57,222 nt of DNA from an uncultured Gammaproteobacteria bacterium (GCA_964610305.1 CAZSVL010000001.1:174781-232002), one strand, 5' to 3'. Shown: positions 6,439-21,503, counted from the first letter of the stretch. Translations and numbers: made by a program. Notes: generated by a model not told the origin, from the letters alone.

Positions 6439-7854
6439 TCAAAGCTGTTTTGCATACAATGCGCTCACCCAACCGTCTATTGACCCTATTTTTATGTGAT
6501 ACCAACCCTCAATGCTCTCAATCATTTCATAGTTGTCTCTTGGCGATACGCGTGAAACTATATCTGCCTGCGCGCTTGGTAGAGCTCTCACGTTCAGATA
6601 GCCAAGACCAGTAGGTAGAATTTCTATTCGCGCAGTAGTTGGCGGCGGTGTTGGTTTTGGTGTTTCTGTAGAAGACTCTTGCACTTGGACCGCTTCTATT
6701 TCACTATTTTGAGTGCTTGGATGGCTGCTTTCATTTAGATTGCCAATGAGCGAGTAAATAGGAAGAATAACAGCTAGGGCAACAGCCATCACACCAAGCC
6801 ACACAATAACGAGTAACAGCGGCTCAAGCAATACGGCCAGGTTTTTTGATGTGGTCTCTGATTTTTGTTCAAAAATATGACCCATGTTGAGAAAGGCCTC
6901 GGCCATACCGCCAGACTGCTCGCCAGTGATGATGAGCTCTTGCACTGGTTTGGGGATGAGCCTGTCCGATTTTTTGTATAAAGCAAAAGAAGCTGAAAAA
7001 GTCTCTCCGTCGGCAAGGTGGCTAGCTGTATGATTATAAAACTTTTTGTATCTGGCAAGGGTTGTTGATTCTGCAAGAGAGCTCATTGCATGTACAACAG
7101 GTACACCAGCCTTTAGTAGTGATCCCACCAGAAAACCGGCTCGTGCTAGCTCTGCTTGTCTTAATACCACTTTTAGCGCTGGCAGACTAAGGAGGATTCC
7201 TTGGCCAACAAAGCGCGTTTTTTTAAAGAAAAAAAGGAAATAAAATAAGATTGCAGAGGTTGCGGCCACAGAAGAGATAACAAGTGCTCCGTGTTTGCTG
7301 AGGAAAAGACCTGTTGCAATAAGAATCTTAGTAATTAGTGGCAATTGAATATCTAAGCCAGAAAATACCGTTGCAAGATTTGGCAGCACAAACCATGCAA
7401 CCGTAAGACCAACAAAAACCGTGAGTCCCATCACAAAAACTGGATACATCATGGCGGATCTAATTTTTGATCTGAATGCGCGTTGCTTACGACTTTGATC
7501 TACCACGACGCGCATGTTTTCATTGAGTCTGCCAGATTCTTCTCCAAGTTTGATGAGCGCAATGGATTGCTCTTTGAATAGGGCAGACTTCTGCATTGCC
7601 TCAGAAATAGCCATTCCTTGCTCAATGTCTGCAGCTATGGTGAGAACAACTCGCTTGAGCGCCTTTGATTTTATATCATGAGCGATAGAATCAAGAGATT
7701 GAGCTACTCCCCTGCCAGAGCCTAGCAGCATAGCAAAATTTTCTAGCAAAATCTCTTTTTCCTTGGCAACAAAAACAGGTTTGCTAAGTACTGCAAAAAT
7801 ACGCGCAGATGAGGTGCGCGTGTTTTTTCTTTGTTTTCTTTTTGTCTTGATCAT
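6439..7854 (-). CDS. pilC: Type IV pilus platform protein PilC/GspF with C-terminal SH3b domain
   Basis: Two T2SSF repeats (GEESGRL, GEQSGGM, LLEPLL, ILPIY); tail YLNVRALPS...GWYHIKIGSIDGWVS. Confidence 0.9.
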   Translation of the reverse strand: MIKTKRKQRKNTRTSSARIFAVLSKPVFVAKEKEILLENFAMLLGSGRGVAQSLDSIAHDIKSKALKRVVLTIAADIEQGMAISEAMQKSALFKEQSIALIKLGEESGRLNENMRVVVDQSRKQRAFRSKIRSAMMYPVFVMGLTVFVGLTVAWFVLPNLATVFSGLDIQLPLITKILIATGLFLSKHGALVISSVAATSAILFYFLFFFKKTRFVGQGILLSLPALKVVLRQAELARAGFLVGSLLKAGVPVVHAMSSLAESTTLARYKKFYNHTASHLADGETFSASFALYKKSDRLIPKPVQELIITGEQSGGMAEAFLNMGHIFEQKSETTSKNLAVLLEPLLLVIVWLGVMAVALAVILPIYSLIGNLNESSHPSTQNSEIEAVQVQESSTETPKPTPPPTTARIEILPTGLGYLNVRALPSAQADIVSRVSPRDNYEMIESIEGWYHIKIGSIDGWVSALYAKQL

Positions 7855-7855
7855 G

Positions 7856-9526
7856 TTATTGCAACGCCACACGAACAACTTCATTTATGGTGGTTACACC
7901 GGCGTACACTTTGGCCAATCCATCCATATATAAAGTGGGGCTTAGATTTTTGTCTGCGTACGCGCGTATATCTTGGGCTGTGGGGCGCTTAGCTACAATT
8001 TCTTTTAAGTTGTCGTCTACTAATATGAATTCAAACAATGCCGTGCGTCCGCTGTATCCGGTTCCCGCGCAACTACTGCATCCTTTTCCTATGTAGTGCA
8101 CTAACCTTCCTTTTTTCATACTTCTGGATAGGCTCGGATTATTTTTTATGATCTCAGCTCGGGAAGTTTTACTTGTTTCTCTGCAGCGTTCGCATATTTT
8201 TCTTACCAGACGTTGAGCGATTATAAGTTCTAGCGTAGAGGCTAAAATGAAAGGTTCAACACCCATATCCATGAGGCGCGGGATCGCCGTGGCCGCATCG
8301 TTTGCGTGAAATGTTGAGAGCATAAGATGGCCTGTTAGCGCGGCATTTGTTGCAATGTCTGCCGTTTCTTGGTCTCTGATTTCGCCCACTAAAATTACGT
8401 CTGGATCCTGGCGCACAATTGAGCGAAGGCCGGTAGCAAAGCTCAAATTTGTCTCTTTATTAACCTGCATGTGGTTCACGCCAGCTACTTTATATTCTAC
8501 TGGGTCCTCTATGGTGGCGATGTTAACGGTTGTCTTATTAAGGGTTTTGATAAGTCCATAAAGCGATGTTGTTTTTCCGGATCCCGTTGGTCCCACTACC
8601 AAAATCATGCCAAAGGGCTTTCTGGCAGATGCTAGCAGTGCATTTTGATGAGCCTGGTTTAGGCCAAGATCGGTAAAAGTAAAACCGCGCACATAAGCGG
8701 CAAGAAGCCGTAGCACAATTTTTTCTCCGTCCATGAGCGGAGCAATAGAAATTCTCAAATCTGTTTTTCTTTCATTATGCTCGTATCGCATTGAGCCGTC
8801 TTGGGTTGCCGCATGAAGGTCTGTCCGCAGAGATGAACGCACTTTTATATGATTCAGCACGTTTCCATAAATGCGTGGTTCAAGTTTAGCTACATCTCTT
8901 AGAATTCCATCTATTCTAAACCGTATTACTATAAGTTCCTCTCGTGGGTCAAAGTGAATATCTGAGCAACGCAGCGCCAGAGCATCTTGCATCACTTCGT
9001 CAAATATGCGAGGTGCCATTTTATCTCCTGATGATACAATGCTTTTTAATCTATCTTGGAGGGGTTTGCGGTATGCAATGAAGGCTTCTTCTATGTCTTC
9101 AGGTAGGCTGTAGTAAATACTTACCTTTTTTGGCGAAATTTTTTTCTTCACTTCCGAAAGTGGTGCCAATGATTTTTTTGCCGAAGCAGCCAATCCCTTC
9201 TTAAGTGGATTTGAAGTGGTAATTATTACATCAGATCCGTTTTGCTCAAAAACCACAGCACGATTTTTCTTTGCAAAGCTCTCAGGAAGCCGCAAAACCA
9301 TCTCTTTGGTTGGCATGTAGGAGTTTAAATCCGCATAAGGCACCTTGTAGTGCTCTGCTATGGCTTGTCCAATGATGTCTTTTGTAAGAATCCCTTGGGT
9401 GACCAAAAAATTCATCAGAACATTTTCTTTCTGATCAACATATTCTTGCAGAAGCGCTACATCATTGAGATTGATGTAGTTTCCAGCAATCAGTATATCT
9501 TGTAGTTCTTTATTGCTTAGGTTCAT
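7856..9526 (-). CDS. pilB: Type IV pilus assembly ATPase PilB/GspE
   Basis: Walker A GPTGSGKT, TIEDPVEY, RQDPDVILVGEIRD, His box, CxxC...CxxC. Confidence 0.93.
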   Translation of the reverse strand: MNLSNKELQDILIAGNYINLNDVALLQEYVDQKENVLMNFLVTQGILTKDIIGQAIAEHYKVPYADLNSYMPTKEMVLRLPESFAKKNRAVVFEQNGSDVIITTSNPLKKGLAASAKKSLAPLSEVKKKISPKKVSIYYSLPEDIEEAFIAYRKPLQDRLKSIVSSGDKMAPRIFDEVMQDALALRCSDIHFDPREELIVIRFRIDGILRDVAKLEPRIYGNVLNHIKVRSSLRTDLHAATQDGSMRYEHNERKTDLRISIAPLMDGEKIVLRLLAAYVRGFTFTDLGLNQAHQNALLASARKPFGMILVVGPTGSGKTTSLYGLIKTLNKTTVNIATIEDPVEYKVAGVNHMQVNKETNLSFATGLRSIVRQDPDVILVGEIRDQETADIATNAALTGHLMLSTFHANDAATAIPRLMDMGVEPFILASTLELIIAQRLVRKICERCRETSKTSRAEIIKNNPSLSRSMKKGRLVHYIGKGCSSCAGTGYSGRTALFEFILVDDNLKEIVAKRPTAQDIRAYADKNLSPTLYMDGLAKVYAGVTTINEVVRVALQ

Positions 9527-9893
9527 GCCCTTTGCCAAGGGCGGCTTTGACGCGCTCTACCACCCCAGAGATAGGTGTATCGGATTTGACGAAAAAATCA
9601 CGAGCACCAAGCATTTTTGCGCGCTTTATGTCGTCCTCCTGACTTAAATTAGATGCCACTATAACGGGCATTTTTCGTTTAGATTTCTTTAGTTGCTCTA
9701 AAACCACAAAACCATCTTTTACAGGCATGACTAAATCTAAAATTAGCAAGTCAAACTTTTCCTTGCCTAGCATCTCTAAAGCCTGTTTTCCGTTGCTTGC
9801 AATGTTGCACTCAAAGCCCTCTGAAACTAGTTTAAGCTGCATGGCCTTTGCCATTGGTTTTTCGTCTTCTGCAATAAGTATTTTCTTTGGCAT
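9510..9893 (-). CDS. Single-domain response regulator (receiver)
   Basis: ILIAEDE, LILDLVMP phospho-Asp, SNL, FFVK. Confidence 0.9.
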   Translation of the reverse strand: MPKKILIAEDEKPMAKAMQLKLVSEGFECNIASNGKQALEMLGKEKFDLLILDLVMPVKDGFVVLEQLKKSKRKMPVIVASNLSQEDDIKRAKMLGARDFFVKSDTPISGVVERVKAALGKGHEPKQ

Positions 9894-9951
9894 ATTTGTG
9901 ACTCAATCATATCATATTTACGGGCAATCTGTATGGGGATATACTAGCGTT

Positions 9952-10695
9952 ATGACACTCATAATATTTGCCGCTGGCCTTGCATTTGGATCTTTTTTTA
10001 ATGTGGTGATTGAGAGAACGGCAGATGGTAAAAATCTGGGAGGTAGATCAGGATGTAATCAATGTAAAACGCAGCTTGCGTGGTGGCAATTAATTCCCGT
10101 ACTTTCTTATGTATTTCTTGGGGGGCGCTGCTATAAATGCCACAAAAAAATCCCGTGGCACTATAGTGTTGTAGAGCTGCTGACTGCTGCTATTTTTGTT
10201 TTACTTTGGCAGAAGCACGGCTCATTTTCTTTAGAGTTTTTCTTGAGCATTGCCGTTGCGTGCTCATTTTTGATTTTGTTTTGGCAAGATGCGTTGTATG
10301 GATTGCTGCAGGACACCATAACCATCCCCTCAATAGTGATAATTTTTACACTGCGTTTGCTGATCAACGATGATCTTTTTTATCCGGCGATGGCTGCGCT
10401 TATTGGAGGTATGTTTTTTTGGATCCAACATTTTTTGTCAGATGGAAAATGGGTTGGACAGGGAGATATCCGTTTGGGTATGCTCATGGGCATCTCGCTT
10501 GGTTTGAAAGGTTTAATGCTTAGTCTTGGTTTGGGATATATTTTTGGCGCACTGGTGGCGCTTGTTCTTTTGGGATTAAAAAAAGCCGACGCCCAGACAA
10601 AGCTGCCGTTGGGTGTCTTTTTGATTCCCGCTGCAGCTATTGTGTTTTTTTATCAGGATCAGATTCTCAGTATTTACTTTTCTTTTTTGATCTAA
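9952..10695 (+). CDS. pilD: Prepilin peptidase (A24)
   Basis: GSFFNVVIER, two CxxC pairs, catalytic Asp motifs WQD and GQGD; start moved to 9952. Confidence 0.9.
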   Translation: MTLIIFAAGLAFGSFFNVVIERTADGKNLGGRSGCNQCKTQLAWWQLIPVLSYVFLGGRCYKCHKKIPWHYSVVELLTAAIFVLLWQKHGSFSLEFFLSIAVACSFLILFWQDALYGLLQDTITIPSIVIIFTLRLLINDDLFYPAMAALIGGMFFWIQHFLSDGKWVGQGDIRLGMLMGISLGLKGLMLSLGLGYIFGALVALVLLGLKKADAQTKLPLGVFLIPAAAIVFFYQDQILSIYFSFLI

Positions 10696-10699
10696 CTGG

Positions 10700-11878
10700 C
10701 TAGTTTAAACCTAGTTCTTTTTGAAAATCAGCAATGGACATCTGATAATCCTCAAGAAGGTCTGATGCAATGGGATCTCCTGATGGAAACTCTTGCGTGA
10801 GAGGATTTATTTTTGTGCCGTGGCGCAGCATCTCATAGTGCAAGTGCGGTCCGGTTGAAAAACCGGTTGAGCCAACTTTTCCTATGATGTCTCCTTGTTT
10901 TACTTTCTGTCCGCGACTCACTAGTATTCTGGATTGGTGAGCGTAGTTAGTAGAGAAAGTGCCGTTGTGTCTGATGGACGTAAGATAACCGTATCCCGCG
11001 GAGCTCCAGCCGGCGGACGTTACCGTGCCGTCTGCGGTGGCTCTTATCGGTGTCCCAGCAGGAGCTGCATAGTCTATGGCGCGATGACCGGTGCTTACAT
11101 TAAATGCAGCTACATAGCGCCTACCGGTGGTGAATCCGGATGAAATATATTTGTAGTGCACTGGAGCTTTCAAAAACATGCGTACGGCGGAATTGCCCTG
11201 CTCAGCAAAACATCCCGGCTCCTCTCCCCCATCAAAAGGGGACGATGGATATATTTTTCCGGCGTTGTTGTAAGTGCCCGCCAAGATAGTTGCAGGCATG
11301 ACATATTCTCCATCGCGGAAGCGCTCTTCATATATGAATTCAAAGGTGTCCCCTACTCTGGGATCTAAAGCAAAGTCCACGCTCCATTGAAACACTTCTG
11401 CCAATTCTATTATGGCTCTAATGTCTATGTCTGCATCAAGCGCCGCTTGATACATGCTAGACTCCACCGTGCCTTTCTTTTGTACGATTCTAGTCTCATA
11501 CTCAATAGGGACCGCCGTGGCATTCCATGAGCTACTGGCAGTTTTTACAATACGCAGTTCCTCCTCTGTGTCTATGGGATACACTAGTTCTTCTAACTTT
11601 TTATCATTGTCATAATAGAGACTAATTTCTTTTCCAATTCTTACTTTCGACAAATCATAGACTTCTTGAGACGAGGTAAAAAGTACGTGAGCGAGAGAGC
11701 TGGTAACACCGGCATCTCTCATTAACGTGCCAAAGGTGCTACCCTCCTCTACCGTTACACTTTCAGATATGCGCTCTGGCTCATGTGTGGATTGTACTGT
11801 TTCTGTCTCTGTCTGAGGCGCAAATTTAATTAAAAAAAATGCTGCAAAAAAGCCCACAATAATTCCGGCGTATTTCAT
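10700..11878 (-). CDS. M23 family peptidase (MepM/Csd3-like)
   Basis: HRAIDYA and TGPHLHYE motifs, N-terminal anchor; start moved to MKYAG at 11878. Confidence 0.9.
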   Translation of the reverse strand: MKYAGIIVGFFAAFFLIKFAPQTETETVQSTHEPERISESVTVEEGSTFGTLMRDAGVTSSLAHVLFTSSQEVYDLSKVRIGKEISLYYDNDKKLEELVYPIDTEEELRIVKTASSSWNATAVPIEYETRIVQKKGTVESSMYQAALDADIDIRAIIELAEVFQWSVDFALDPRVGDTFEFIYEERFRDGEYVMPATILAGTYNNAGKIYPSSPFDGGEEPGCFAEQGNSAVRMFLKAPVHYKYISSGFTTGRRYVAAFNVSTGHRAIDYAAPAGTPIRATADGTVTSAGWSSAGYGYLTSIRHNGTFSTNYAHQSRILVSRGQKVKQGDIIGKVGSTGFSTGPHLHYEMLRHGTKINPLTQEFPSGDPIASDLLEDYQMSIADFQKELGLN

Positions 11879-11964
11879 AGTAGATACGATTGTAGCACAC
11901 TTTGTGCGATAATCGGGAGCTGGGCAGCCTTGCAGCGCATTTTTGTTTCTCGTATGATAGATAT

Positions 11965-12249
11965 ATGAAAACAAACATGAATAAAGAAGATTTTAAGAAG
12001 TTGTTAGATGAGGCTTTTGGATTGCGCAAGGAGTACGGAGACAAGCATGGGATTAACACTGCGTTGCGTCATATTACTGATTCCACAGAGCGCAGGGATC
12101 TTTTTGTGGCTATAGATAAGGAATTTAAAAAGGCTGATGCAGAAGCAGCGGAGATCAAACGTGCGGTTGAGCACGATAGGATTTCAACGTTGTATGAAGA
12201 TGCAAAAGCTCATGAGATGCGAATCCCACGTGATAGCCTTCCTGGTTAG
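11965..12249 (+). CDS. Hypothetical protein
   Basis: Charged helical ORF; upstream in-frame extension overlaps the divergent gene, so ATG 11965 chosen. Confidence 0.6.
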   Translation: MKTNMNKEDFKKLLDEAFGLRKEYGDKHGINTALRHITDSTERRDLFVAIDKEFKKADAEAAEIKRAVEHDRISTLYEDAKAHEMRIPRDSLPG

Positions 12250-12296
12250 TAAGATATTTTTGTCTCAACGTCTTCTCAGTCGGAGGTGAAAAATAT

Positions 12297-12821
12297 ATGA
12301 GTGAAAAAACAATGACACTTCAAAGAGTGAGTAGAGTGAGTTTAGTAATTTTTATGGCGGTCGCTGTTATGCTTGTTTTAGCAACGCCTGTCTCGGCTGA
12401 AGAGGGAAAAGCTAAAAAAGAGTATTTTAAGAAAGATGGGTATCATCTAAAAGATAAACGTTTTTTTAAGAAGCACAAGAAATTTAAGGCACGTTGGAAT
12501 CAGATGTCTAAGGGGGATATACAAGAGCTGAAGGCCAAGCATACAAAATTAAGAAAGCAGCGAAGGGCAGAATTTGAGTCATTTGTAGGTAAAAGTAAAG
12601 AAGAGATCAGAAAAGCACGAAAAAGTGGCACGTCTGTAGGAGAGTTGCTTGAGCAAAGCGGGAAGACGCAAGACGATGCTCGGCAGTTTTTGGAAAATCG
12701 TGCCGAAAAGAAATTGAATCATGTAAAAGAGAAAAAGGACATTTCTGATGAAAGGGAATTAAAAATAAGAGAAAGAATGAAAGGATTTGTGCAGAGAATG
12801 CTGAGTAAGTGGTTTAAGTAA
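12297..12821 (+). CDS. Hypothetical secreted basic helical protein
   Basis: Signal-peptide-like N-terminus ending PVSA-EE, Lys/Glu-rich body, terminator follows. Confidence 0.7.
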   Translation: MSEKTMTLQRVSRVSLVIFMAVAVMLVLATPVSAEEGKAKKEYFKKDGYHLKDKRFFKKHKKFKARWNQMSKGDIQELKAKHTKLRKQRRAEFESFVGKSKEEIRKARKSGTSVGELLEQSGKTQDDARQFLENRAEKKLNHVKEKKDISDERELKIRERMKGFVQRMLSKWFK

Positions 12822-12828
12822 TACAGAT

Positions 12829-12858
12829 AAAAATAGCGCTTAGTTAAGCGCTATTTTT
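12829..12858. terminator. Bidirectional intrinsic terminator
   Basis: Perfect 13-bp inverted repeat AAAAATAGCGCTT-AGTT-AAGCGCTATTTTT. Confidence 0.85.
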
Positions 12859-12959
12859 GTATCTTCTGTCGCCATTTTGTGTATTAAGTTAAGGCGCTTT
12901 TTTTAGAAATATCAAAAAATTAAGCTTAATTTGGCTAAGACTAGCCACAAAACTGCGTC

Positions 12960-12988
12960 TTGACAAATTCATTTTTTTATGGTAAAAA
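12960..12988 (+). promoter_or_regulatory. Possible sigma70 promoter of the PspA island
   Basis: TTGACA-17 nt-TAAAAA with TG extension; -10 imperfect. Confidence 0.45.
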
Positions 12989-13064
12989 AGGGGTCAACAA
13001 AGCGCAAAAAAATAGGGCGCCTGTTGCGTTCCTTACAATACATCACTCAAAAACAGGAGACACC

Positions 13065-13760
13065 ATGAGTGAAGAGCAAACAGCCAAGAAGTCGTGGACG
13101 GCCAGCTTTGGAAAAGGACTGTCCAATCTCATCTTTGAGGATGACAGTAGCTCTGAGCAGGCTCTGGATCTGGATGATCTAGATTTTGACGATGACGACG
13201 ATTTCCATCCTACTGCCGCAATTCCCGTAGAGGGTTCTGAGCAGGAAGGTGAGCCAGTAGATGAGCGTGGGCAGAACAGCATTAACGCTCAGTTCCCGGA
13301 TCTGTATGCCAATATGGGTCTGCAGGCTGATGCAAATACGGATACGCTTCTGAATACTTTTGATGGCATGAAGGCCATGGATGAAACAGCGCGTGGTCAG
13401 GCAATGGGCGCCATGATTGGTGGAATGCAGGCGGATGTTACGCGCACCCGCATGATTCTTGCCAAGCGCAGCAAGTGCCTTGAGTTTGTGGTAAAGGCGC
13501 AGCAGCAGGCTGTGGCCAAGAAGCAGGCGGCACGTACGCAGGCTTTGGCTTCTTCAAAGACCCAGGCCGATGCTCAAGTAGAAGCATTTCGCAAGCAGAT
13601 TGCAGAGGTTGAGGATTCGCTTGCCGCTCAGGTGCAGGATGATCAGAGCAACACCAATACGGAAAATGCCGCCTTGCGTGGCATGGAAATCCGTATGAAC
13701 ACCGAAATTGAGCGCATGGCTGCGCTTGATAATTTCTTTAGCTCGCAAGAGGAGGGGTAG
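13065..13760 (+). CDS. Hypothetical protein, acidic N-terminus and coiled-coil C-terminus
   Basis: SD AGGAG before ATG 13065; stop abuts the pspA-like start. Confidence 0.8.
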   Translation: MSEEQTAKKSWTASFGKGLSNLIFEDDSSSEQALDLDDLDFDDDDDFHPTAAIPVEGSEQEGEPVDERGQNSINAQFPDLYANMGLQADANTDTLLNTFDGMKAMDETARGQAMGAMIGGMQADVTRTRMILAKRSKCLEFVVKAQQQAVAKKQAARTQALASSKTQADAQVEAFRKQIAEVEDSLAAQVQDDQSNTNTENAALRGMEIRMNTEIERMAALDNFFSSQEEG

Positions 13761-14477
13761 ATGGACTGGTTAAGGAATCTCTGGCGCGGCATCATGCGCG
13801 TCTTGGTTACCAAGTCAGCCGAGGCTGCACCTGAGGTAACCATTGGTGGCATGATCGCCAAGCGCAAGGCGCAGCGAAAGGACATCATTAATAAGGCCTC
13901 TAAGGTTAGGGGTCTGCTGAAGAGTACGCGGTCAAGGCATAAGGCAAAGAATGCTGAGCTGCAAAAGCTCAAGCGTGCACTTCAGAATGCCATTGCTGAG
14001 GGTAACAAGAAGGCCGGTTCTGTCATTATCCAGCAAGTCAAGATTCTTGAAGAGCTGGTAAATGATCTTGCCCAGGATGTAAAGGAGCTTGCTGCGGTTG
14101 ACAAGCAGCTTGTCTCTGACATCAAGGTCTTCAATCAGAAGATTCTTGACATGCAGTCCAAGCTCAAGGTCAAGTCTGCCCGAGCATCAAATGCGCGGAC
14201 GCAGCGTGAAGTCATGGATCAGGTTAGCGGTTTGGCTATTGAATGGGATTCTGAGGCCGAGCAAGCCGCATGGGACAAGTTTGATGCGGATATTGGAGCC
14301 GCTGAAATCGTGGCAGAGACTGATGGCGCTCAGCTTGAGCGTGAAGTGCGCCAGTTGGTGCAGGATGCAGAGGTTGACGCGGCCGGCGACGAGTTTGATA
14401 CTCTGCGCGCCGAGTTTGAGGCTTCTCAGGGAGTCTCTGAGGCCGCGTCCGGCGACAATTCTAGCAAGTCTGCTTAG
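13761..14477 (+). CDS. PspA/IM30 (Vipp1/ESCRT-III superfamily)-like protein
   Basis: 238 aa, amphipathic N-terminal helix MDWLRNLWRGIMR, long coiled-coil hairpin, ALQNAIAEGN motif position, C-terminal DEFDTLRAEF. Confidence 0.7.
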   Translation: MDWLRNLWRGIMRVLVTKSAEAAPEVTIGGMIAKRKAQRKDIINKASKVRGLLKSTRSRHKAKNAELQKLKRALQNAIAEGNKKAGSVIIQQVKILEELVNDLAQDVKELAAVDKQLVSDIKVFNQKILDMQSKLKVKSARASNARTQREVMDQVSGLAIEWDSEAEQAAWDKFDADIGAAEIVAETDGAQLEREVRQLVQDAEVDAAGDEFDTLRAEFEASQGVSEAASGDNSSKSA

Positions 14478-14503
14478 AACAAAAAGCAACGGAGGGAAAA
14501 GAT

Positions 14504-16381
14504 ATGGCTGGTAAGAAGCTTACCCCGGTAGCAAAGATTATTCTGGTGCTCATGGTTGTTGGCGCTGCTTATGGCAGCGTTAAGCTGTTTGCGCCTGATC
14601 TCATGGCAAAGGTGTTCCCCGAGAAGGCTGTATCGCAGTCTAGCGTTCCGCCCAAGGCGGATCTGCCTGAGCCAAGTGTAGCGGGGAACGACAGCGGCGC
14701 TCCACCGCAGGCAAACGCGCCAAAGCGTGGAGACGGAAGCTTTCCGGATGTAAGTGGCTACATTAGTAGCACGCCGGGCTGCTCCAGCGGTACTCAGGTG
14801 CGGTGGAAGCACTGGTACTGGAATACGCATAACGGTGTGATTTACGCCAATGGCGGGCCGGTCGCGAAGAAAGACTCACTCATGTGTAAGAACGGTGTGG
14901 ACCTGCGAATGTCCCGTGAGGACGAGGTTCCCAACCAGTTTGCAGAGATGGTCAAGTTTGCCGATGCGCTGAGCAAGGGTGATCCTAACCCCACGGTGGG
15001 CGCCCACTTTATCTCTCTGATGGGAGATGGCACGGCCGCGTTGCTGACGGAGCTCAACGAGAAGCTGGAGAAGTACGGGCCTGAGTATCGCGCTCAGATC
15101 ATTGGATCTGGCGGCTACTCTCGTGGTGAGGACTGCGTGATGGGGCCGCCCAAGTGGCGGGACAATCCTGAGACAGCTCGTGGCGGCCTGTGCGCTGCTT
15201 ACTTGCGAGACGGCGACTGGAACATTGGCATGAAGTGGCTTGGTGACAACGGGATCTGTAACAATCCGGATGAGCGGACGTACGATCCCAACTGTTTCAA
15301 CTGGGTCAACGCCGATGGTTACATTGACGCGGCACAGAAGTATGTAGCAGGCTATTGCGAGGATCGTGATGTGGTGGTCAACGGCCGGCGCACGGGCGAG
15401 AAGCGCAACGTCTGCATTGACTGCGTAGCCACCTGGACGCCGGGCGATAACATCGTTGCTGATAAGCGCGGTGGACTTGTCCGGATTGCCAGCACGCGCG
15501 AGTATGCCTTCCAGATGCCGCAGGCCATCATTGGTGTGCGCAAGTGGATGCGTGACAACCCTGCGGTGGTAGAGGGCATGCTGGAGGCTATCTTTAAGGC
15601 GAATCAGACGATTCGCGATAATGATAACGCCATGCGGCGTGCTAGCGCGCTTGCGGCGGTCACGTACAACGAGGCCAACGCAGATGCAGCGTACGTGTAT
15701 CGGTACTTTAAGGGTGTGACTGAACCGGATAAGACGGGTTTGCAGGTAGAGCGTGGAGGCTCTTCTGTTAACAACCTGGCGGACAACTGCAACCTGTTTG
15801 GTCTGCAGAGTTGCGCTCCGGGTTCTACGAGCATTTTCAAGCGCACCTATGAGGTGTTTGGAGATATCGTGGTTCAGCAGTACCCCAAGTTGGTGCCGCG
15901 CTACCAGCCCTACGCTCATGTTGTGGATACGAGTTACTTGGAGCGCATTGCAGGCAGGGTGAGCGGACGAGTTGCCGCTGCTGCGCTGCCTACGTTTGCG
16001 GCCACTGCTCCCGGAGCAGCGCCTACGCGTATGATCTCCAAGAAGTCATGGCGGATTAAGTTCAAGTCTGGGTCTGCTGGATTTACGCCGGCGGCCAAGA
16101 AGGAGCTCAACGCGCTGTTTGATGATCTGGTTATCACCAGCACGCGGGTTGAGGTTCACGGTCATACGGATAACACCGGCGTGGCACGTGAGAACCTAAG
16201 GCTCTCTGAAAAGCGTGCGTTTGCCGTTAAGAAGTGGTTGGAGAAGAAGTCTCCGACCAACTTCCCGCAGAACCGTGTAAGCGTGTTTGCGCATGGTCAG
16301 AGCAATCCGGTGGTTGCCAATAGTACGGCTGCCAATAAGGCAAAGAATCGCCGTGTAGAGATTGTGATGCGCGCTAACTGA
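14504..16381 (+). CDS. Membrane-anchored substrate-binding protein (NMT1/SsuA-like) fused to OmpA-like peptidoglycan-binding domain
   Basis: N-terminal TM, Pro-rich linker; C-terminal GHTDNTG...NLRLSEKRA...NRRVEI; adjacent ABC genes. Confidence 0.85.
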   Translation: MAGKKLTPVAKIILVLMVVGAAYGSVKLFAPDLMAKVFPEKAVSQSSVPPKADLPEPSVAGNDSGAPPQANAPKRGDGSFPDVSGYISSTPGCSSGTQVRWKHWYWNTHNGVIYANGGPVAKKDSLMCKNGVDLRMSREDEVPNQFAEMVKFADALSKGDPNPTVGAHFISLMGDGTAALLTELNEKLEKYGPEYRAQIIGSGGYSRGEDCVMGPPKWRDNPETARGGLCAAYLRDGDWNIGMKWLGDNGICNNPDERTYDPNCFNWVNADGYIDAAQKYVAGYCEDRDVVVNGRRTGEKRNVCIDCVATWTPGDNIVADKRGGLVRIASTREYAFQMPQAIIGVRKWMRDNPAVVEGMLEAIFKANQTIRDNDNAMRRASALAAVTYNEANADAAYVYRYFKGVTEPDKTGLQVERGGSSVNNLADNCNLFGLQSCAPGSTSIFKRTYEVFGDIVVQQYPKLVPRYQPYAHVVDTSYLERIAGRVSGRVAAAALPTFAATAPGAAPTRMISKKSWRIKFKSGSAGFTPAAKKELNALFDDLVITSTRVEVHGHTDNTGVARENLRLSEKRAFAVKKWLEKKSPTNFPQNRVSVFAHGQSNPVVANSTAANKAKNRRVEIVMRAN

Positions 16382-16394
16382 GTGATGTAGTTAA

Positions 16395-16430
16395 GTCCGA
16401 TCTGCCCAAGGGGGTGGATCGGACGTTTTT
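16395..16430 (+). terminator. Intrinsic terminator, followed by a second hairpin at 16431-16459
   Basis: GTCCGATC...GATCGGAC then GTTTTT. Confidence 0.7.
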
Positions 16431-16492
16431 CTTAGACCCGCACCAGGTGCGGAGCTAAGAATTTCAAAAATATCGTAAAAGAAGGAGGAAAC

Positions 16493-17281
16493 ATGAGAGA
16501 ACTAGCGCTCGCATGGATGCCAAACAAGGTTATCTCTGCCAAGACGTTCTGGCTGATCGCAACGGTGCAGGCCTTCATTGCGCTGCTAATTTGGATTAAC
16601 TCTCCATGGAAGGCACTTCCGGTGCCGCCAGAAGTGTGGAGGGCATTTGTCCATTTGTGGTTTGAAATGGGGCTCAGCCACGAGATTTACACAAGCTTTT
16701 TGCTGAATCTTGAGGCACTTGCCTTCACCCTGATTATCTCGCTGAGCATCTCGTACCTCACGGTACTGCCGGTCATGAGGCCCCTGGCACTTGCCATCTC
16801 TAAGGGACGGTTTCTGGGGCTTATGGGCCTGCCGTTTGTCTTTACGCTGATGTTTGGCGGAGGGCATAATCTAAAGGTGGCACTGCTCACCTTTGGCATG
16901 ACGGTTTTCTTTGTCACCTCTATGGTAGAGGTGGTAGCCCGGATTCCAAAAGCGCAGTTTGATCACGCTAGAACGCTCCGCATGAGCGAGTGGCGTGTGG
17001 TCTGGGAGGTTGTAATTCTTGGCACGCGTCATAAGGCCATTGAGGTCTTTAGGCAAAACGCCGCCATTGGCTGGATGATGATTGCCATGGTAGAGGGAAT
17101 TTCTCGTGCCGACGGCGGCGTGGGAGCCCTGCTGCTTGCAGAAAACAAGCACTTTAAGCTGCCAGAGGTTTTTGCTATTCAGCTGATGATCCTCTTTGGA
17201 GGGTTGCTGGTTGACTACGGCATTGGCATCATTGAGCGCATTGTAAGCCCCTATGCGCGGCTCTCGTTGGAGCGGAGGTAG
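16493..17281 (+). CDS. ABC transporter permease (SsuC/TauC/NitT type)
   Basis: About 6 TM segments, EAA-like FDHARTLRMS, MIAMVEG...GGVG motif; SD AAGGAGG. Confidence 0.88.
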   Translation: MRELALAWMPNKVISAKTFWLIATVQAFIALLIWINSPWKALPVPPEVWRAFVHLWFEMGLSHEIYTSFLLNLEALAFTLIISLSISYLTVLPVMRPLALAISKGRFLGLMGLPFVFTLMFGGGHNLKVALLTFGMTVFFVTSMVEVVARIPKAQFDHARTLRMSEWRVVWEVVILGTRHKAIEVFRQNAAIGWMMIAMVEGISRADGGVGALLLAENKHFKLPEVFAIQLMILFGGLLVDYGIGIIERIVSPYARLSLERR

Positions 17282-17283
17282 TC

Positions 17284-18132
17284 ATGGCTGAATACGGCGG
17301 CGGAGCAGTGCTGGAACATGAGTGGAAGGATCCGCTCATTACTGTCAATGATGTAAACCTTAGCTTTGGCGATAACCATGTGCTGCGTGATGTAAGCCTA
17401 GAGATTCGCGATGTGGTGCGGCCTGGTCGTACCACCGGTCAGGTTGTGGCTTTGCTTGGTCCCTCTGGGATGGGCAAGACACAGCTTTTTAGAATCATTG
17501 CAGCGCTCAATAAGCCCGATTCTGGCATTGTGCTCGTGGGGCCTGAGCAGCAGCCCACCGATGTGGGGATGATTGGGATTGTCTCTCAGCATTATCCCCT
17601 CTTTAATCACCGCACGGTGATGGGAAATCTGTTGGTTGCCGGAAGACTCGCAGGGCTTACGGATCAGACAGCACGTGCTAAGGCTTTTGAGCAGCTGGAT
17701 AAGCTCAATTTGTCCCGGGATGTAGCAACCATGTATCCAGCGCCACTCTCTGGCGGTCAGCGTCAGAGGGTGGCGATCGCTCAGCAGTTCATGTGCTCAG
17801 ATCGTTTTCTTTTCATGGATGAGCCTTTCTCTGGCCTTGACCCAATCGCTTTGGACATGGTGGCAGCCATTGTAGAGGAAGTAGCAAATCTGGATGAGCT
17901 AAACACCGTAGTGGTCATCACCCATGACATTGGCTCTGCCATTGAAGTGGCAGATACCATTTTGCTTCTGGGTAGGGATCGTGATGAGGAAGACCAGCCC
18001 GTGATGGGAGCGCGGATCCAGCGCACGTATGATCTTATTGAGAGAGGTCTTGCGTGGCGCAGCGGCATTAGGAATGAGCCAGAATTCTTTAACCTGCTGC
18101 GCGAGATCAACGCGGATTTTCATCTTATGTAA
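17284..18132 (+). CDS. ABC transporter ATP-binding protein (SsuB/TauB type)
   Basis: Walker A GPSGMGKT, LSGGQ signature, FMDEPFSGLD, H-loop ITHD. Confidence 0.93.
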   Translation: MAEYGGGAVLEHEWKDPLITVNDVNLSFGDNHVLRDVSLEIRDVVRPGRTTGQVVALLGPSGMGKTQLFRIIAALNKPDSGIVLVGPEQQPTDVGMIGIVSQHYPLFNHRTVMGNLLVAGRLAGLTDQTARAKAFEQLDKLNLSRDVATMYPAPLSGGQRQRVAIAQQFMCSDRFLFMDEPFSGLDPIALDMVAAIVEEVANLDELNTVVVITHDIGSAIEVADTILLLGRDRDEEDQPVMGARIQRTYDLIERGLAWRSGIRNEPEFFNLLREINADFHLM

Positions 18133-18137
18133 TAGTA

Positions 18138-18178
18138 GCGAGGCCTAGCACTAGGCTAGGCCTCGCGCTTTCTTTTCT
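18138..18178 (+). terminator. Intrinsic terminator
   Basis: Perfect 12-bp stem GCGAGGCCTAGC/GCTAGGCCTCGC followed by T-rich tract. Confidence 0.75.
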
Positions 18179-18251
18179 CTGATTGTGCATTAGGTGCATA
18201 GCCAGAGCCCAGAAAGCTCAGAATAGTTCATTAAAACTCACGGAGGGCGCA

Positions 18252-19277
18252 ATGGAGGGCGAGCAGCTCTTAAAAAAGGGAATAAAACGCGCCGTCACAT
18301 CCACGGGAAACGTGGTAACGGGGGCGCTAGCGCTAGGAGCATCACTTGCTCTGGCCAATCCCCTGCCCGCCATTTTGTGGGGGTTGGGGTCAGCGGTTTA
18401 TGTAGGAAGCAGAGTTACGTCTGCTAGCTACGCGCAGAAGATTATCAATGAAGAATTTGAAGCTGAAAAGCAGCGATCCGCAGCTAAGCATAAGGCTCTG
18501 CGCGCGTGGGTGCTTAAGACGCTTGATGAGGACCCGTTCTATAGCTGGATGGGTCATGGTCTTATGCCTCAGTACGGCAAGCAGTTTCTAGAGCTAGAGG
18601 CTACGCGCGATAGGATTGCTCGTCAGGCGCATGCACGCAAAGACGTGGCGTTTGGTCTTGAGAGCGATGTTCACAAGCAGATGAATCTGCTTTTGGCAGC
18701 CTATTTGCGCTTTGTTCAATCGCGTATTGTGTTTGTCCAGAAGCTCTCTGGCGTTAGGCTGGATCTGGATGAGCCCGTTATTGAGCCAGAGCAAGAGCTC
18801 TCGCTTCTTGACTGGGCAGCTCATCACCTCCTTGAGGTGGAGCAAGACGATTCGCAGGAAGAGTTTGAAGAGCCGGCCGAATATGACAGAACACCTCTTC
18901 CCAGTTTTGATTTGGATGCGCAACTGCGCTATCTAACGCAAAAACGGGATGCAAAAAAGCGTGCTAGTTCTCAAAATGGAGCCGCTGCAAAGATTACGGC
19001 GGGCCATGTTGAGATGCTTAACAGAAGGATTGCATTTCTGAAGGACATTGCAGCGCGTGATCAAAGGGCTACAGCTCAGCTGGAGGCATTGCCCGATGTG
19101 TTCTACTTCATGTTAGACAGGATTGGTTCCGCTCATGTGGATCCGTCCCAGATTACCTCTTACATGACTGATGTTGTTAGTCGTGTAGAGGCAGATCAAG
19201 AGTTTGTGGAAGAAATGACTCCGTCCTCCGATGACCTCATCAGAGGCATTGAGGAGGAGCAGCTTCTATCGCTTTAA
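18252..19277 (+). CDS. Hypothetical protein: N-terminal hydrophobic hairpin plus long helical domain
   Basis: SD GGAGG before ATG 18252; hydrophobic GALALGASLALANPLPAILWGLGSAVYV. Confidence 0.8.
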   Translation: MEGEQLLKKGIKRAVTSTGNVVTGALALGASLALANPLPAILWGLGSAVYVGSRVTSASYAQKIINEEFEAEKQRSAAKHKALRAWVLKTLDEDPFYSWMGHGLMPQYGKQFLELEATRDRIARQAHARKDVAFGLESDVHKQMNLLLAAYLRFVQSRIVFVQKLSGVRLDLDEPVIEPEQELSLLDWAAHHLLEVEQDDSQEEFEEPAEYDRTPLPSFDLDAQLRYLTQKRDAKKRASSQNGAAAKITAGHVEMLNRRIAFLKDIAARDQRATAQLEALPDVFYFMLDRIGSAHVDPSQITSYMTDVVSRVEADQEFVEEMTPSSDDLIRGIEEEQLLSL

Positions 19278-19279
19278 TC

Positions 19280-19305
19280 GCCCTAATGGAAACATTGGGG
19301 CTTTT
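19280..19305 (+). terminator. Hairpin/terminator
   Basis: GCCCTAATG-GAAA-CATTGGGGC then TTTT. Confidence 0.55.
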
Positions 19306-19319
19306 CTTTAGGAGAGACA

Positions 19320-21068
19320 ATGGAGCAAGCAGGATTCATTGAAGATATCCGCGTGCGATACGCGGCTGGACGTGAACGTTTGTTTATTTTGCATGGCAAT
19401 ACGGCAGATCTGTTTAGTAGTGCGGATGGTACGCTGCGGACACTTCCGGATCATTTGTTTGCACAGATCACTGGTGGTAAGCAAACAAACAAGATCTGGA
19501 TGCACTTTAGTGTAGACAGCGGTGTTCGGTGGATAAATGAGAAGGATGCGCAAGGCGTAGCTAGGCTGGGCAAGCTTGCAGCAAGTGAATCTGACGTACT
19601 TTTTACGCGCGATCCCTTGAATTGTCTTCGTCTTGTGAAGAACGTGTGCTCAAGGCGTGAAAAAGTGGCTGATAAAGCAGGTTCTGTGGTGCCGCTGCGT
19701 CTTGTCATGACAGATGCTCAGCACATTGTGCCGCAGTCTAGCTCTTCATTTATGCCAAAGGAAACACGAGAGATGCTTGTATTCCTGAAACGATTTGCGA
19801 GTGAGCCCTTCTACGATCAGACCGATACGTTGATCATTCTGGTTACCGACACACTCTCGGCAGTTCATGAGGAGCTGCGCGAGGCCGCGGTGTCAATTGA
19901 GCTGCTATCGCCGGATGAGGAGCAGGTTGGCGAGGATTTGATGCACGCTATTGCTCAATACGATACTGATTACGTGATAAATGATCTGGCAAACATGAAA
20001 GAATTGGCGATTGGATTGACCACTCGGCAGATTCAGAATGTGGTTGCGCAGACTAAGCACGCTGGCGTACCGTTATCCCCTGCTATTCTCTCGCGTCGTC
20101 GCAAGGAGTTGGTAAAGCGCTCTTATGGCGAGAATCTGGAGTTCCAGAAGCCTAGATGGGGTTTTGATGCGGTTGGTGGTGCTAAGACTGCGGTTGAGGC
20201 GCTTTCCTCTCTTGCACAGCTTCTAGCTAGTGGTGATCCTGACGTTCCCGCCGGTATCATCATGGCGGGGCAGAACGGTGTGGGGAAATCCTACATTGGT
20301 GAGGCGTTTGCTCATGAGGCTGGCATCAACGTGGTGAGTATTCCCCCGTTTAAATCTAGAGATTACGGCGGCACAGCGCGTGCGTGGAGTAAGATTGAGA
20401 CAGGTCTTAAGTCTTGCAGACGCATCATTGTGAAGGTGGATGAAGCTGATGCGCGTTTGGGTAAGCGCTCTGGCGATGTCCATGAGACTAGCAAAGAGCT
20501 TATCTCACGACAGCTTGAGTTCATCGGTGATCCAGCATATGTTGGTAGAATCTTCTGGATTCTGATGACCTGCCGACCTGATGAGCTTGCGCCAGACTTT
20601 AAGCGACCTGGACGATGTGACACGGTAATTCCGCTGTTTCCGATCCTTGATCAGGATGAGGCACTGGAGATTCTACGTGCTGTCATGAAGTTTCTGTCTA
20701 ATTCACGGGGATATAAATTTGACATGCCAGAGCTAGAGGTTGAGCATGAGCTTATGACTATGCTTATTGGTAAGACGGGTGGTGACATTAAAAAAATCCT
20801 GCGCAAAGCAAGAGTTGAATCTAAGCGCGATGGAGGAAGACTAATTACTACGCCTGATCTTGAACAGGTTCTTCGCAGCAGCTCTCGTACCAAGGCAGTT
20901 CCTGCCGCCTATGAGCTTCAACAGCTTGTAGGTATTGTAGAGGCGCTGGAGACGGGCAATGAAGAGATGATTCCGCCAGAAATCTGGAAGCAGCATCGTC
21001 TTGACATGCCGTCTAGCTTGACTAAATGCAATGAACGTATTAGAGAGCTTAGACACCTACTTGATTAA
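19320..21068 (+). CDS. AAA ATPase with degenerate N-terminal AAA-like module (Ycf46/SpoVK-like architecture)
   Basis: Walker A GQNGVGKS, Walker B VKVDEAD, SRH TCRPDELAPDFKRPGRCD; SD AGGAG. Confidence 0.88.
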   Translation: MEQAGFIEDIRVRYAAGRERLFILHGNTADLFSSADGTLRTLPDHLFAQITGGKQTNKIWMHFSVDSGVRWINEKDAQGVARLGKLAASESDVLFTRDPLNCLRLVKNVCSRREKVADKAGSVVPLRLVMTDAQHIVPQSSSSFMPKETREMLVFLKRFASEPFYDQTDTLIILVTDTLSAVHEELREAAVSIELLSPDEEQVGEDLMHAIAQYDTDYVINDLANMKELAIGLTTRQIQNVVAQTKHAGVPLSPAILSRRRKELVKRSYGENLEFQKPRWGFDAVGGAKTAVEALSSLAQLLASGDPDVPAGIIMAGQNGVGKSYIGEAFAHEAGINVVSIPPFKSRDYGGTARAWSKIETGLKSCRRIIVKVDEADARLGKRSGDVHETSKELISRQLEFIGDPAYVGRIFWILMTCRPDELAPDFKRPGRCDTVIPLFPILDQDEALEILRAVMKFLSNSRGYKFDMPELEVEHELMTMLIGKTGGDIKKILRKARVESKRDGGRLITTPDLEQVLRSSSRTKAVPAAYELQQLVGIVEALETGNEEMIPPEIWKQHRLDMPSSLTKCNERIRELRHLLD

Positions 21069-21075
21069 AGAGACG

Positions 21076-21102
21076 CCGGCTACAACAGGTAGCCGGTTTT
21101 TT
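21076..21102 (+). terminator. Intrinsic terminator ending the island
   Basis: CCGGCTAC-AACAG-GTAGCCGG-TTTTTT. Confidence 0.85.
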
Positions 21103-21116
21103 GTTATAATAAGCTC

Positions 21117-21503
21117 ATGCAAATTCACAAGGACTCCCCTGCCCTGCGTCTTACCTACTTTTGGCTGGGTCTTATAGCAACATTTTCGTATCGCATTATA
21201 ATCGTACTCAATTTTTACGAGCCTATTTTTGTTAAAATTGCTTGGTATGTTGGAACTATAGGATTCCTAATTTATTTTTGGAATCGCTACCGCGTAATAA
21301 AGCAGTTTGACAGACTCATTGAAGAGCAAAAATTAGTTGCGGCTGTAAAAAAGGCAAAGGGAATCAGCTCTAACCAAAAAAAGGCACTGGCCTTTATTGT
21401 ACAAACGCTCGACACCACCAAAGCGCAAATAAACTACGAGGCTATATTTATTTTATCCGGATTGGCACTTGTGGCCGGAATTATTCTGGATTTTGTTGTT
21501 TGA
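21117..21503 (+). CDS. Hypothetical membrane protein
   Basis: 128 aa, three hydrophobic segments. Confidence 0.7.
   Translation: MQIHKDSPALRLTYFWLGLIATFSYRIIIVLNFYEPIFVKIAWYVGTIGFLIYFWNRYRVIKQFDRLIEEQKLVAAVKKAKGISSNQKKALAFIVQTLDTTKAQINYEAIFILSGLALVAGIILDFVV

Follow-up and report, generated by a model that had tools for sequence, protein, structure and literature searches.

A further Patescibacteria-type copy of a conserved seven-gene cassette encoding PspA, a wall-tethered ABC transporter and a tandem AAA ATPase

The window analysed here, a stretch of 57,222 nucleotides (nt) deposited under an uncultured Gammaproteobacteria bacterium (GCA_964610305.1, CAZSVL010000001.1:174781-232002), derives from a genome of the Patescibacteria type, i.e., from an ultra-small bacterium, and carries one copy of a gene cassette at positions 13065-21068. 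The cassette consists of seven genes on the + strand, numbered g1 to g7 from 5' to 3'. Gene g1 (13065..13760) codes for a soluble partner protein of 231 amino acids (aa) whose N-terminal part is acidic and of low complexity and which has a coiled coil at its C-terminus, g2 (13761..14477) for a 238-aa protein assigned to the PspA/IM30 family within the ESCRT-III superfamily, and g3 (14504..16381) for a 625-aa protein in which a transmembrane (TM) anchor is followed by a Pro/Ala-rich linker, an NMT1-like solute-binding domain and a C-terminal OmpA-like domain. These are followed by g4 (16493..17281), coding for a 262-aa importer-type permease of the ATP-binding cassette (ABC) class with a BPD_transp_1 fold, g5 (17284..18132), coding for a 282-aa ABC transporter ATPase, g6 (18252..19277), coding for a 341-aa membrane-anchored all-helical protein, and finally g7 (19320..21068), coding for a 582-aa tandem (type II) classical AAA ATPase, the first and second AAA domains of which are referred to as D1 and D2. 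The seven co-oriented open reading frames (ORFs) with strong Shine-Dalgarno motifs that had been described in the initial annotation are thus all in place: a GGAG or GGAGG motif lies ahead of every one of them, and the intergenic gaps from g1 to g7 amount to 0, 26, 111, 2, 119 and 42 nt, respectively.

With respect to novelty, the suspicion voiced in that annotation that such neighbourhoods might have been catalogued before was justified, as the same seven-gene order is listed for Candidatus Handelsmanbacteria (OGG56892.1) in Table S3 of Ravi, Anantharaman, Aravind, Gennaro et al. (2024, mSystems, PMC11237479), who propose a remodelling of membranes that depends on ATP and is coupled to the transport of solutes, in essence the same interpretation as in that annotation. 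The complete unit of seven genes is therefore already catalogued, and the cassette in the window is a further Patescibacteria copy of it. The likeness, which was set by the published order and domain description of the OGG56892.1 neighbourhood, comprises in turn a position denoted X, PspA, a SIG+PBPB+OmpA protein, a TM permease, an ABC ATPase, a TM helical protein and an inactive AAA domain joined to a further AAA domain. The present copy differs in being of the Patescibacteria type and in that its position-6 protein is without Snf7/ESCRT-III similarity detectable by the methods applied. A word-index search with a diverse AAA alignment yielded no named Handelsmanbacteria match and was dominated by generic AAA proteins.

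Amongst the comparison loci, i.e., contigs that were reached via homologues of the AAA protein and that carry labels of the form L0xx, the full set of seven genes recurs with unchanged order in five further ones (L030, L032, L034, L036 and L062). In addition, L063 holds nearly the same copy as L036, and L061 comprises the last five genes only, with the contig end cutting off the rest. Across the cassette loci all seven genes are reciprocal orthologues, the identity to L030 being 80-82% for the transporter genes g3 to g5, 58-59% for g1, g6 and g7, and 34% for PspA. At NCBI, the copies in L034 and L035 are entered for a Patescibacteria group bacterium, under the names 'PspA/IM30 family protein', 'hypothetical protein' and 'ATP-binding protein'. 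In the L063 copy the genes for the permease (6764-7581) and for the AAA protein (9792-11527) are each found in two pieces, by frameshift or assembly error.

The cassette is also set apart by its base composition, having a G + C content (GC) of 0.525 (0.49-0.57 for the single genes) as compared to 0.43-0.46 in its flanks, and a GC at third codon positions of 0.47-0.65 as compared to 0.37-0.42. The genes on either side range from 0.38 to 0.43, with the next gene downstream, g8, dropping to 0.39, and the edges of this compositional island coincide exactly with g1 and g7. In all six Patescibacteria-type loci, the window included, the cassette lies 3-10 GC points above its flanks, and these flanks are unlike in every locus except L030, featuring PNPase/S15, a TraG-like gene, thymidylate synthase or a glycosyltransferase. 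The GC excess together with the varied flanks suggests that the cassette is inherited or transferred as a unit, and points to its horizontal movement. A gene with a DUF8128 domain and a gene coding for a TraG/VirD4-like coupling protein (DUF87, TrwB_AAD_bind) are located just 3' of the cassette in L034 (9148-12333), and this neighbourhood hints at a conjugative or mobile context. In L032 (12281-14820) and L061 (8973-11605), the AAA gene has directly 3' of it a gene of the YqiJ_N (NfeD-like) type and a long one resembling Band_7/flotillin genes; for membrane-organisation pairs of such a kind, a link with PspA is likewise drawn by Ravi et al. (PMC11237479).

The assignment of g2 does not follow from its own sequence score, which at 17.9 bits (E = 0.0025, residues 24-163) is below the gathering cut-off of 33.9 for PF04012. 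A profile of the six orthologues, in turn, matches solved Vipp1/PspA chains across the helical core (alpha1-alpha5) with an E-value of 5e-15 (query residues 23-223 on chain residues 21-218), and 8e-16 is reached when two extra members are included. PF04012 is recorded for the orthologues in L032, L034, L062 and L063, the one in L034 sharing 29% identity with g2 (E = 7e-22). The initial call of a PspA/IM30 protein at 13761..14477 is thus borne out by the orthologue profile, and g2 is, by sequence comparison, a true PspA/IM30 protein of the ESCRT-III superfamily. Its N-terminus is a strongly amphipathic helix of the membrane-binding kind (alpha0), the hydrophobic moment of residues 1-18 being 0.57 and ranking third of 220 windows, with similar values in all six orthologues. 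A conserved C-terminal tail reads ...EFxxLxxxFEAxQG...GK[STQ][AV] and may, as a candidate, serve as a recognition tag for the AAA protein. The PspA of L030 (4626-5165), the closest relative of the window amongst the loci, is about 60 residues shorter (179 instead of 238 aa) and retains the tail in the form FEASQG...GKTA.

For the partner protein g1, orthologues are found at the same position in L030, L032, L034, L036, L062 and L004, and the motif F-P-x-[LI]-Y-A is conserved amongst them. Neither a profile search against the PDB, nor hhalign against the PspA family, nor a permissive member-by-member Pfam scan gave any match for g1. The g1 stop codon directly abuts the PspA start in the window and abuts or overlaps it in several other loci, which suggests co-translation in a fixed ratio. 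At its other end, an in-frame TTG at position 12960 is a possible upstream start, and an AGGAG site precedes the ATG at 13065.

The ATPase g7 matches PF00004 with an E-value of 2e-16, the best NCBIfam match being CDC48 (1e-14), followed at a distance by CdvC (0.0026). A g7 profile finds both D1 and D2 of p97/Cdc48 (5e-52), in each case with the D2 region of g7 only. The AlphaFold2 (AF2) model of g7, with a mean predicted local distance difference test (pLDDT) score of 84, aligns in Foldseek over about 600 columns with the D1-D2 tandems of Cdc48, p97 and Rix7 (E = 6e-21). In D1 (about residues 1-270) the sequence LHGNTxDLF stands instead of GxxGxGK[ST], so that the Walker A lysine is missing, as is the Walker B DE pair. 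In D2 (about residues 280-520), by comparison, a Walker A motif (GQNGVGKS), a Walker B motif (VDEAD), the pore-loop glycine and the arginines of the second region of homology (SRH; RPD...RPGR) are all found. In a motif table of 14 family members, both the D1 losses and the D2 motifs are seen in all 14. After D2 there is a conserved, family-specific helical extension at the C-terminus. At the other end, g7 has neither a Pfam match to the MIT domain nor any other N-terminal domain, as residues 1-270 are modelled as a degenerate AAA alpha/beta domain with its lid. Placing g7 in the classical clade, as had been done before, is supported by its intact SRH; what does not hold is the analogy to Vps4 as far as architecture is concerned, since g7 lacks an MIT domain, is a Cdc48/p97-like tandem and has a D1 devoid of Walker A and B. 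According to its model and motifs, g7 is therefore best described as a type II Cdc48-like and not a Vps4-like unfoldase, with a D1 predicted to be dead and a D2 predicted to be live.

The membrane protein g6, which belongs to a family of 167 representative clusters, is all-helical in its AF2 model (pLDDT 72). Two short helices, hydrophobic and with many small residues, are connected by an invariant N-P-L-P turn (residues 36-39) and followed by long helices that are interrupted by a disordered acidic linker (175-213). Since the two hydrophobic helices are joined by a turn, both ends of g6 should face the same side of the membrane, which we infer to be the cytoplasmic one. Ravi et al. label the protein at this position 'SIG+TM+Snf7' (PMC11237479). 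Profiles built from 9 and from 69 g6 sequences gave no ESCRT-III, Snf7 or PspA signal against the PDB, the probabilities of hhalign against the PspA family were 0.4-1.5%, and at permissive E-values none of the 69 family members had a Snf7 or PspA match in Pfam. Foldseek with the g6 model returned no ESCRT-III signal either, the best E-values being 0.4 (PDB) and 0.13 (viral models in BFVD), elongated helical folds being hard for these tools; the PspA of a phage, which ranked 16th (E = 1.1), was rejected as evidence. Both the notion of g6 as a TM-anchored Snf7 and that of g1 as a second ESCRT-III protein thus find no support in profiles, hhalign or Pfam, nor, for g6, in AF2 and Foldseek. Because such tools are weak on elongated helical proteins, the missing Snf7 signal in g6 is not proof of absence.

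The genes g3 to g5 code for a transporter that is tethered to the cell wall. In g3, the TM anchor comprises residues 8-26 and the OmpA domain residues 517-622 (PF00691, E = 2e-19). The domain in between matches NMT1_2 only weakly (E = 0.0075), as it does in four of six orthologues, and no direct sequence match to the PDB was found for it. By hhalign, however, this central domain aligns over 330 columns with the NMT1/THI5-positive domains of L039, L003, L001 and L004 (probability 97.3%, E = 2.7e-11). The binding domain (window positions 14684-16003) is unusually well conserved, being 89% identical to that of L030 and having 82 invariant columns over the six loci. The consensus of these orthologues retains several cysteines, e.g., in GICNNPDERTYDPNC, and extracellular disulfide bonds are thereby suggested. 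On sequence grounds, the centre of g3 is accordingly a divergent, cysteine-rich binding domain of the NitT/TauT type. The claim of a peptidoglycan-tethered solute-binding protein (SBP) is in agreement with this order of TM anchor, binding domain and peptidoglycan-binding OmpA domain.

The earlier calls of an ABC permease and ATPase could likewise be upheld. For g4 the evidence is a weak match to PF00528 (19.6 bits) and a weak NCBIfam match of the SaoP/TauC-like kind; a crude scan shows four hydrophobic segments, the identity to the L030 orthologue is 80%, and the hidden Markov model (HMM) of the g4 family matches the permease of L039 (5e-12), which itself scores 68.7 bits on PF00528. For g5 the match to PF00005 is strong (E = 4e-24), and the top NCBIfam families are the importer-type ATPases CysA, ArtP, PhnT and PotA.

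A transporter trio of SBP-OmpA, permease and ABC ATPase is also found, in the same order, in the 462-kb genome of an uncultured phage (LR756500.1; L066, 369086-388651; local GC 0.25), the respective ORFs at 8761-10575, 10931-11701 and 11720-12544 of that locus reaching HMM E-values of 5e-107, 1e-54 and 7e-64. No AAA, g6 or PspA gene was detected within about 9 kb of this trio. Two ORFs located 5' of it (253 and 368 aa) were considered as equivalents of g1, PspA or g6, and no similarity was detected, the comparison being of low power as it relied on single AT-rich sequences.

Beyond the Patescibacteria-type loci, remoter orthologues of the AAA protein with 25-31% identity exist in Planctomycetota, Myxococcota, Acidobacteriota, Methylomirabilota, Coatesbacteria and Deltaproteobacteria-type metagenome-assembled genomes. 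A PspA gene is located directly upstream of the AAA gene in L001, L003, L007 and L039, and the two of these copies that were scanned, in L001 and L039, exceed the Pfam gathering threshold. In L039 the order is PspA, AAA, NMT1+OmpA binding protein, permease, ABC ATPase and a g6-like gene, so that six of the seven parts are present and only g1 is missing; that the parts other than g1 are found reshuffled in loci of the Planctomycetota type supports a functional coupling. Partial sets occur in L001, L003, L004 and L007. Of these, L004 (Polyangiaceae) lacks the permease and the ABC ATPase, its order being a g1-like gene, PspA, SBP-OmpA, the gene of a 2-TM protein and AAA. In the loci compared, the seven-gene set is thus co-conserved, and the ABC/SBP and AAA blocks co-occur with PspA in other genomes, so that neither of the two outcomes named at the outset as refuting the idea was observed. 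The setting imagined for the system, a host-attached cell of the candidate phyla radiation (CPR), turned out to be too narrow, as the system is also found in Planctomycetota and Myxococcota, and this occurrence beyond the CPR weakens the idea of a role at the host interface.

In a maximum-likelihood tree of the AAA proteins, the PspA-linked members form one clade (support 96/91), within which the cassette members are monophyletic (100/100). In the sister clade (L005, L006, L008, L009, L064 and L065), the AAA gene stands between a Redoxin/AhpC-TSA gene and a gene for a Pro-rich protein, with no PspA neighbour. Therefore, the link to PspA is a property of one clade and not of the ATPase family as a whole. 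The Pro-rich protein of this Redoxin-AAA trio has about 238-317 aa and belongs to no Pfam family. The gene of about 238 aa found 3' of AAA in Deltaproteobacteria-type loci was considered as a hidden PspA and rejected, its product being Pro-rich and not a coiled coil.

Within the cassette, the coding sequences g3, g5 and g6 are each followed by a strong GC-rich hairpin and a U-tract, and then by a second hairpin pairing with the U-tract. On the + strand, the GC-rich hairpin with U-tract and second hairpin in the g3/g4 gap spans 16395..16424, the hairpin, U-tract and second hairpin in the g5/g6 gap 18138..18166, and the hairpin with U-tract in the g6/g7 gap 19280..19301. In L030 the g3/g4 hairpin lies at the same place, a change in its stem being compensatory and its tail, GUUUUUCUUA, being identical; in the g5/g6 hairpin, too, a change is compensated and the tail, GCUUUCUUUU, is the same; and the g6/g7 hairpin is kept in L030 (identical tail UUUUCUUUAG), L036 and L062. 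Analogous hairpins are present in L032, L034, L036 and L062 in every gap of sufficient length for folding; in L034 there is no g6/g7 gap. These elements could be attenuators or processing and stability sites that set the ratio of the subunits (g1 to g3 > g4 and g5 > g6 > g7). Also on the + strand, a terminator-like hairpin with a T-run at 21075..21097, 5' of g8, closes the operon. Outside the cassette, small GC-poor genes flank it at 11902-12821 (g0a and g0b) and 21117-21503 (g8), their products having 115 aa, 174 aa (signal-anchored and charged) and 128 aa (with three TM segments), respectively. No family match was found for any of the three, and orthologues were found in L030 only.

In broad lines the initial interpretation proves largely correct, apart from the type of the ATPase, the restriction to the CPR and the novelty of the unit. 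Taken together, we consider it rather probable that the window harbours one copy of a conserved multi-phylum envelope module in which the AAA motor would act on membrane-bound PspA, its presumed substrate, and remodel or recycle the assemblies. According to this proposal, PspA, probably together with g1, would assemble on the cytoplasmic face of the membrane via its N-terminal helix, with g6 acting as a membrane receptor or nucleation site. A g7 hexamer would then thread and unfold subunits through D2, possibly starting at the C-terminal tail of PspA, and would thereby disassemble or recycle the polymer, which is the task of Vps4 for ESCRT-III accomplished by an ATPase of other architecture. 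The wall-tethered transporter, finally, would either import a small solute of the NitT/TauT type or report the state of the gap between wall and membrane to the module.

A number of points speak against this proposal. The window's own PspA scores below the Pfam threshold, and in the pair of PspA and AAA no recognition elements of the MIT/MIM type are present. The existence of a sister clade without PspA shows the ATPase not to be intrinsically PspA-specific, and as neither g6 nor g1 gives an ESCRT-III signal, a composite ESCRT-III-like polymer is unsupported. Furthermore, the phage trio, with no AAA gene detected within about 9 kb, indicates that the transporter can work without the AAA protein, and experimental work on any member was not found in the literature searched.

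Amongst the known systems close to the cassette is the pair of ESCRT-III and Vps4 (CdvB and CdvC) of archaea and eukaryotes, as here too a protein of the ESCRT-III superfamily is encoded with a classical-clade AAA protein having the pore loop and the SRH arginines, and extraction of subunits is a plausible mode of action. In contrast to that pair, g7 is built as a tandem and lacks an MIT domain, a MIM cannot be recognised in PspA, and the cassette contains no equivalents of ESCRT-I/II or CdvA. According to a 2025 review, a Vps4-like ATPase appears to be absent in bacteria (PMC7619361). With the Psp and Lia systems (pspF-pspABCDE of Escherichia coli and liaIHGFSR of Bacillus subtilis) the cassette shares a PspA-family effector with an amphipathic N-terminal helix and a small membrane partner, and by analogy g6 could be a membrane anchor like PspB/C or LiaI. 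However, g7 is a member of the classical clade of unfoldases and no transcription factor, whereas PspF is a sigma-54 activator of the AAA+ class. In Pfam and NCBIfam scans of the nine proteins encoded from 12297 to 21503, no match to PspF, PspB/PspC, LiaI/LiaF or a two-component regulator was obtained, in line with the initial statement that canonical pspF, pspB and pspC are missing from the cassette. Cdc48/p97/VAT and Rix7 provide the best structural match across both AAA domains of g7, the catalytic motifs of D2 being complete, but g7 has no N-terminal substrate or adaptor domain, its D1 is without Walker A and B, and it has a C-terminal extension of its own. The transporter resembles the NitT/TauT importers (SsuABC, TauABC, NrtABCD and the ThiY-type NMT1/THI5-like proteins) in its NMT1-like domain, its BPD_transp_1 permease and its importer-type ATPase, and differs from them in that g3 is TM-anchored and fused to OmpA, with a highly divergent binding domain containing conserved cysteines.

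A more far-reaching version, which we regard as tentative, sees in the cassette a bacterial counterpart of ESCRT-III and Vps4, in which a Cdc48-derived tandem AAA protein would recognise the C-terminal tail of PspA and draw subunits from membrane-bound assemblies of PspA and g1, g6 would nucleate these assemblies by inserting an N-P-L-P hairpin as a wedge into the membrane, and the coupled wall-tethered transporter would report or adjust the state of the envelope.

It has to be considered, on the other hand, whether the relation between PspA and g7 might be reversed, with PspA holding the ATPase inactive until membrane damage draws PspA off, and the freed g7 then extracting or unfolding g6, g1 or damaged membrane proteins in the manner of Cdc48 or Msp1. 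A precedent is given by E. coli PspA, which binds and inhibits the AAA+ protein PspF (PMC7619361); moreover, g7 is similar to Cdc48, the family of which is known to extract proteins out of complexes and membranes, members of the sister clade do without PspA, and the long disordered acidic linker of g6 would be a plausible handle. However, since PspF is a sigma-54 activator from another AAA+ clade, the precedent is a mere analogy, and the conserved exposed tail of PspA fits a substrate tag at least equally well. Regulation of g7 by PspA seems unlikely to us.

We are equally doubtful about a module centred on the transporter, in which the uptake of a solute (of the osmolyte, sulfonate, nitrate, bicarbonate or pyrimidine type) would be primary, and PspA, g1, g6 and the AAA protein would support, insert or protect the transporter. 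It would accord with the importer fold of the permease and the importer-like ATPase, with the 80-82% identity of the trio to L030 compared to 34-59% for the other four genes, and with the presence of the trio alone in the 462-kb phage. Yet L004 retains PspA, SBP-OmpA, the 2-TM protein and AAA but neither permease nor ABC ATPase, and PspA and AAA are adjacent in L001 and L007. The gene content of these three loci indicates that the pair of PspA and AAA is the more constant core outside the Patescibacteria.

That the mobile, GC-atypical island might instead be an anti-phage or conflict system, i.e., a membrane-acting device for abortive infection or exclusion, is brought to mind by its island-like composition and variable flanks, by the one copy adjoining a TraG/VirD4-like gene and by the related trio in a huge phage. 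It is nevertheless very improbable, as PADLOC-DB 2.0 gave no system-specific match and generic domain overlaps only (the OmpA part of ZorB, the ABC folds of mad3, AriA and others), and as the cassette has no nuclease, toxin or sensor domain, its parts being those of envelope maintenance. Least credible of all is a chance neighbourhood of two or three unrelated small operons, for although terminator-like hairpins lie in the g3/g4, g5/g6 and g6/g7 gaps and the transporter trio can occur alone, the genes are collinear in six loci, six of the seven parts are re-assorted in Planctomycetota-type loci, and all share one island of distinct composition, the limits of which fall exactly at g1 and g7.

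How the polymers formed by bacterial PspA and Vipp1 are disassembled is an open question, and on genomic grounds no candidate for an ATP-driven remodeller dedicated to PspA is clearer than the class of operons described here. To this class, the window contributes no new kind of system, but a member from the Patescibacteria, evidence for the cassette travelling as a GC-rich unit, the recognition of the ATPase as Cdc48-like and not Vps4-like, a negative result with respect to the Snf7 label of the membrane partner, and a candidate recognition tail in PspA. If the cassette should indeed be a counterpart of ESCRT-III and Vps4, a mobile unit of this kind could provide ultra-small Patescibacteria with an ATP-driven means of membrane repair or scission.

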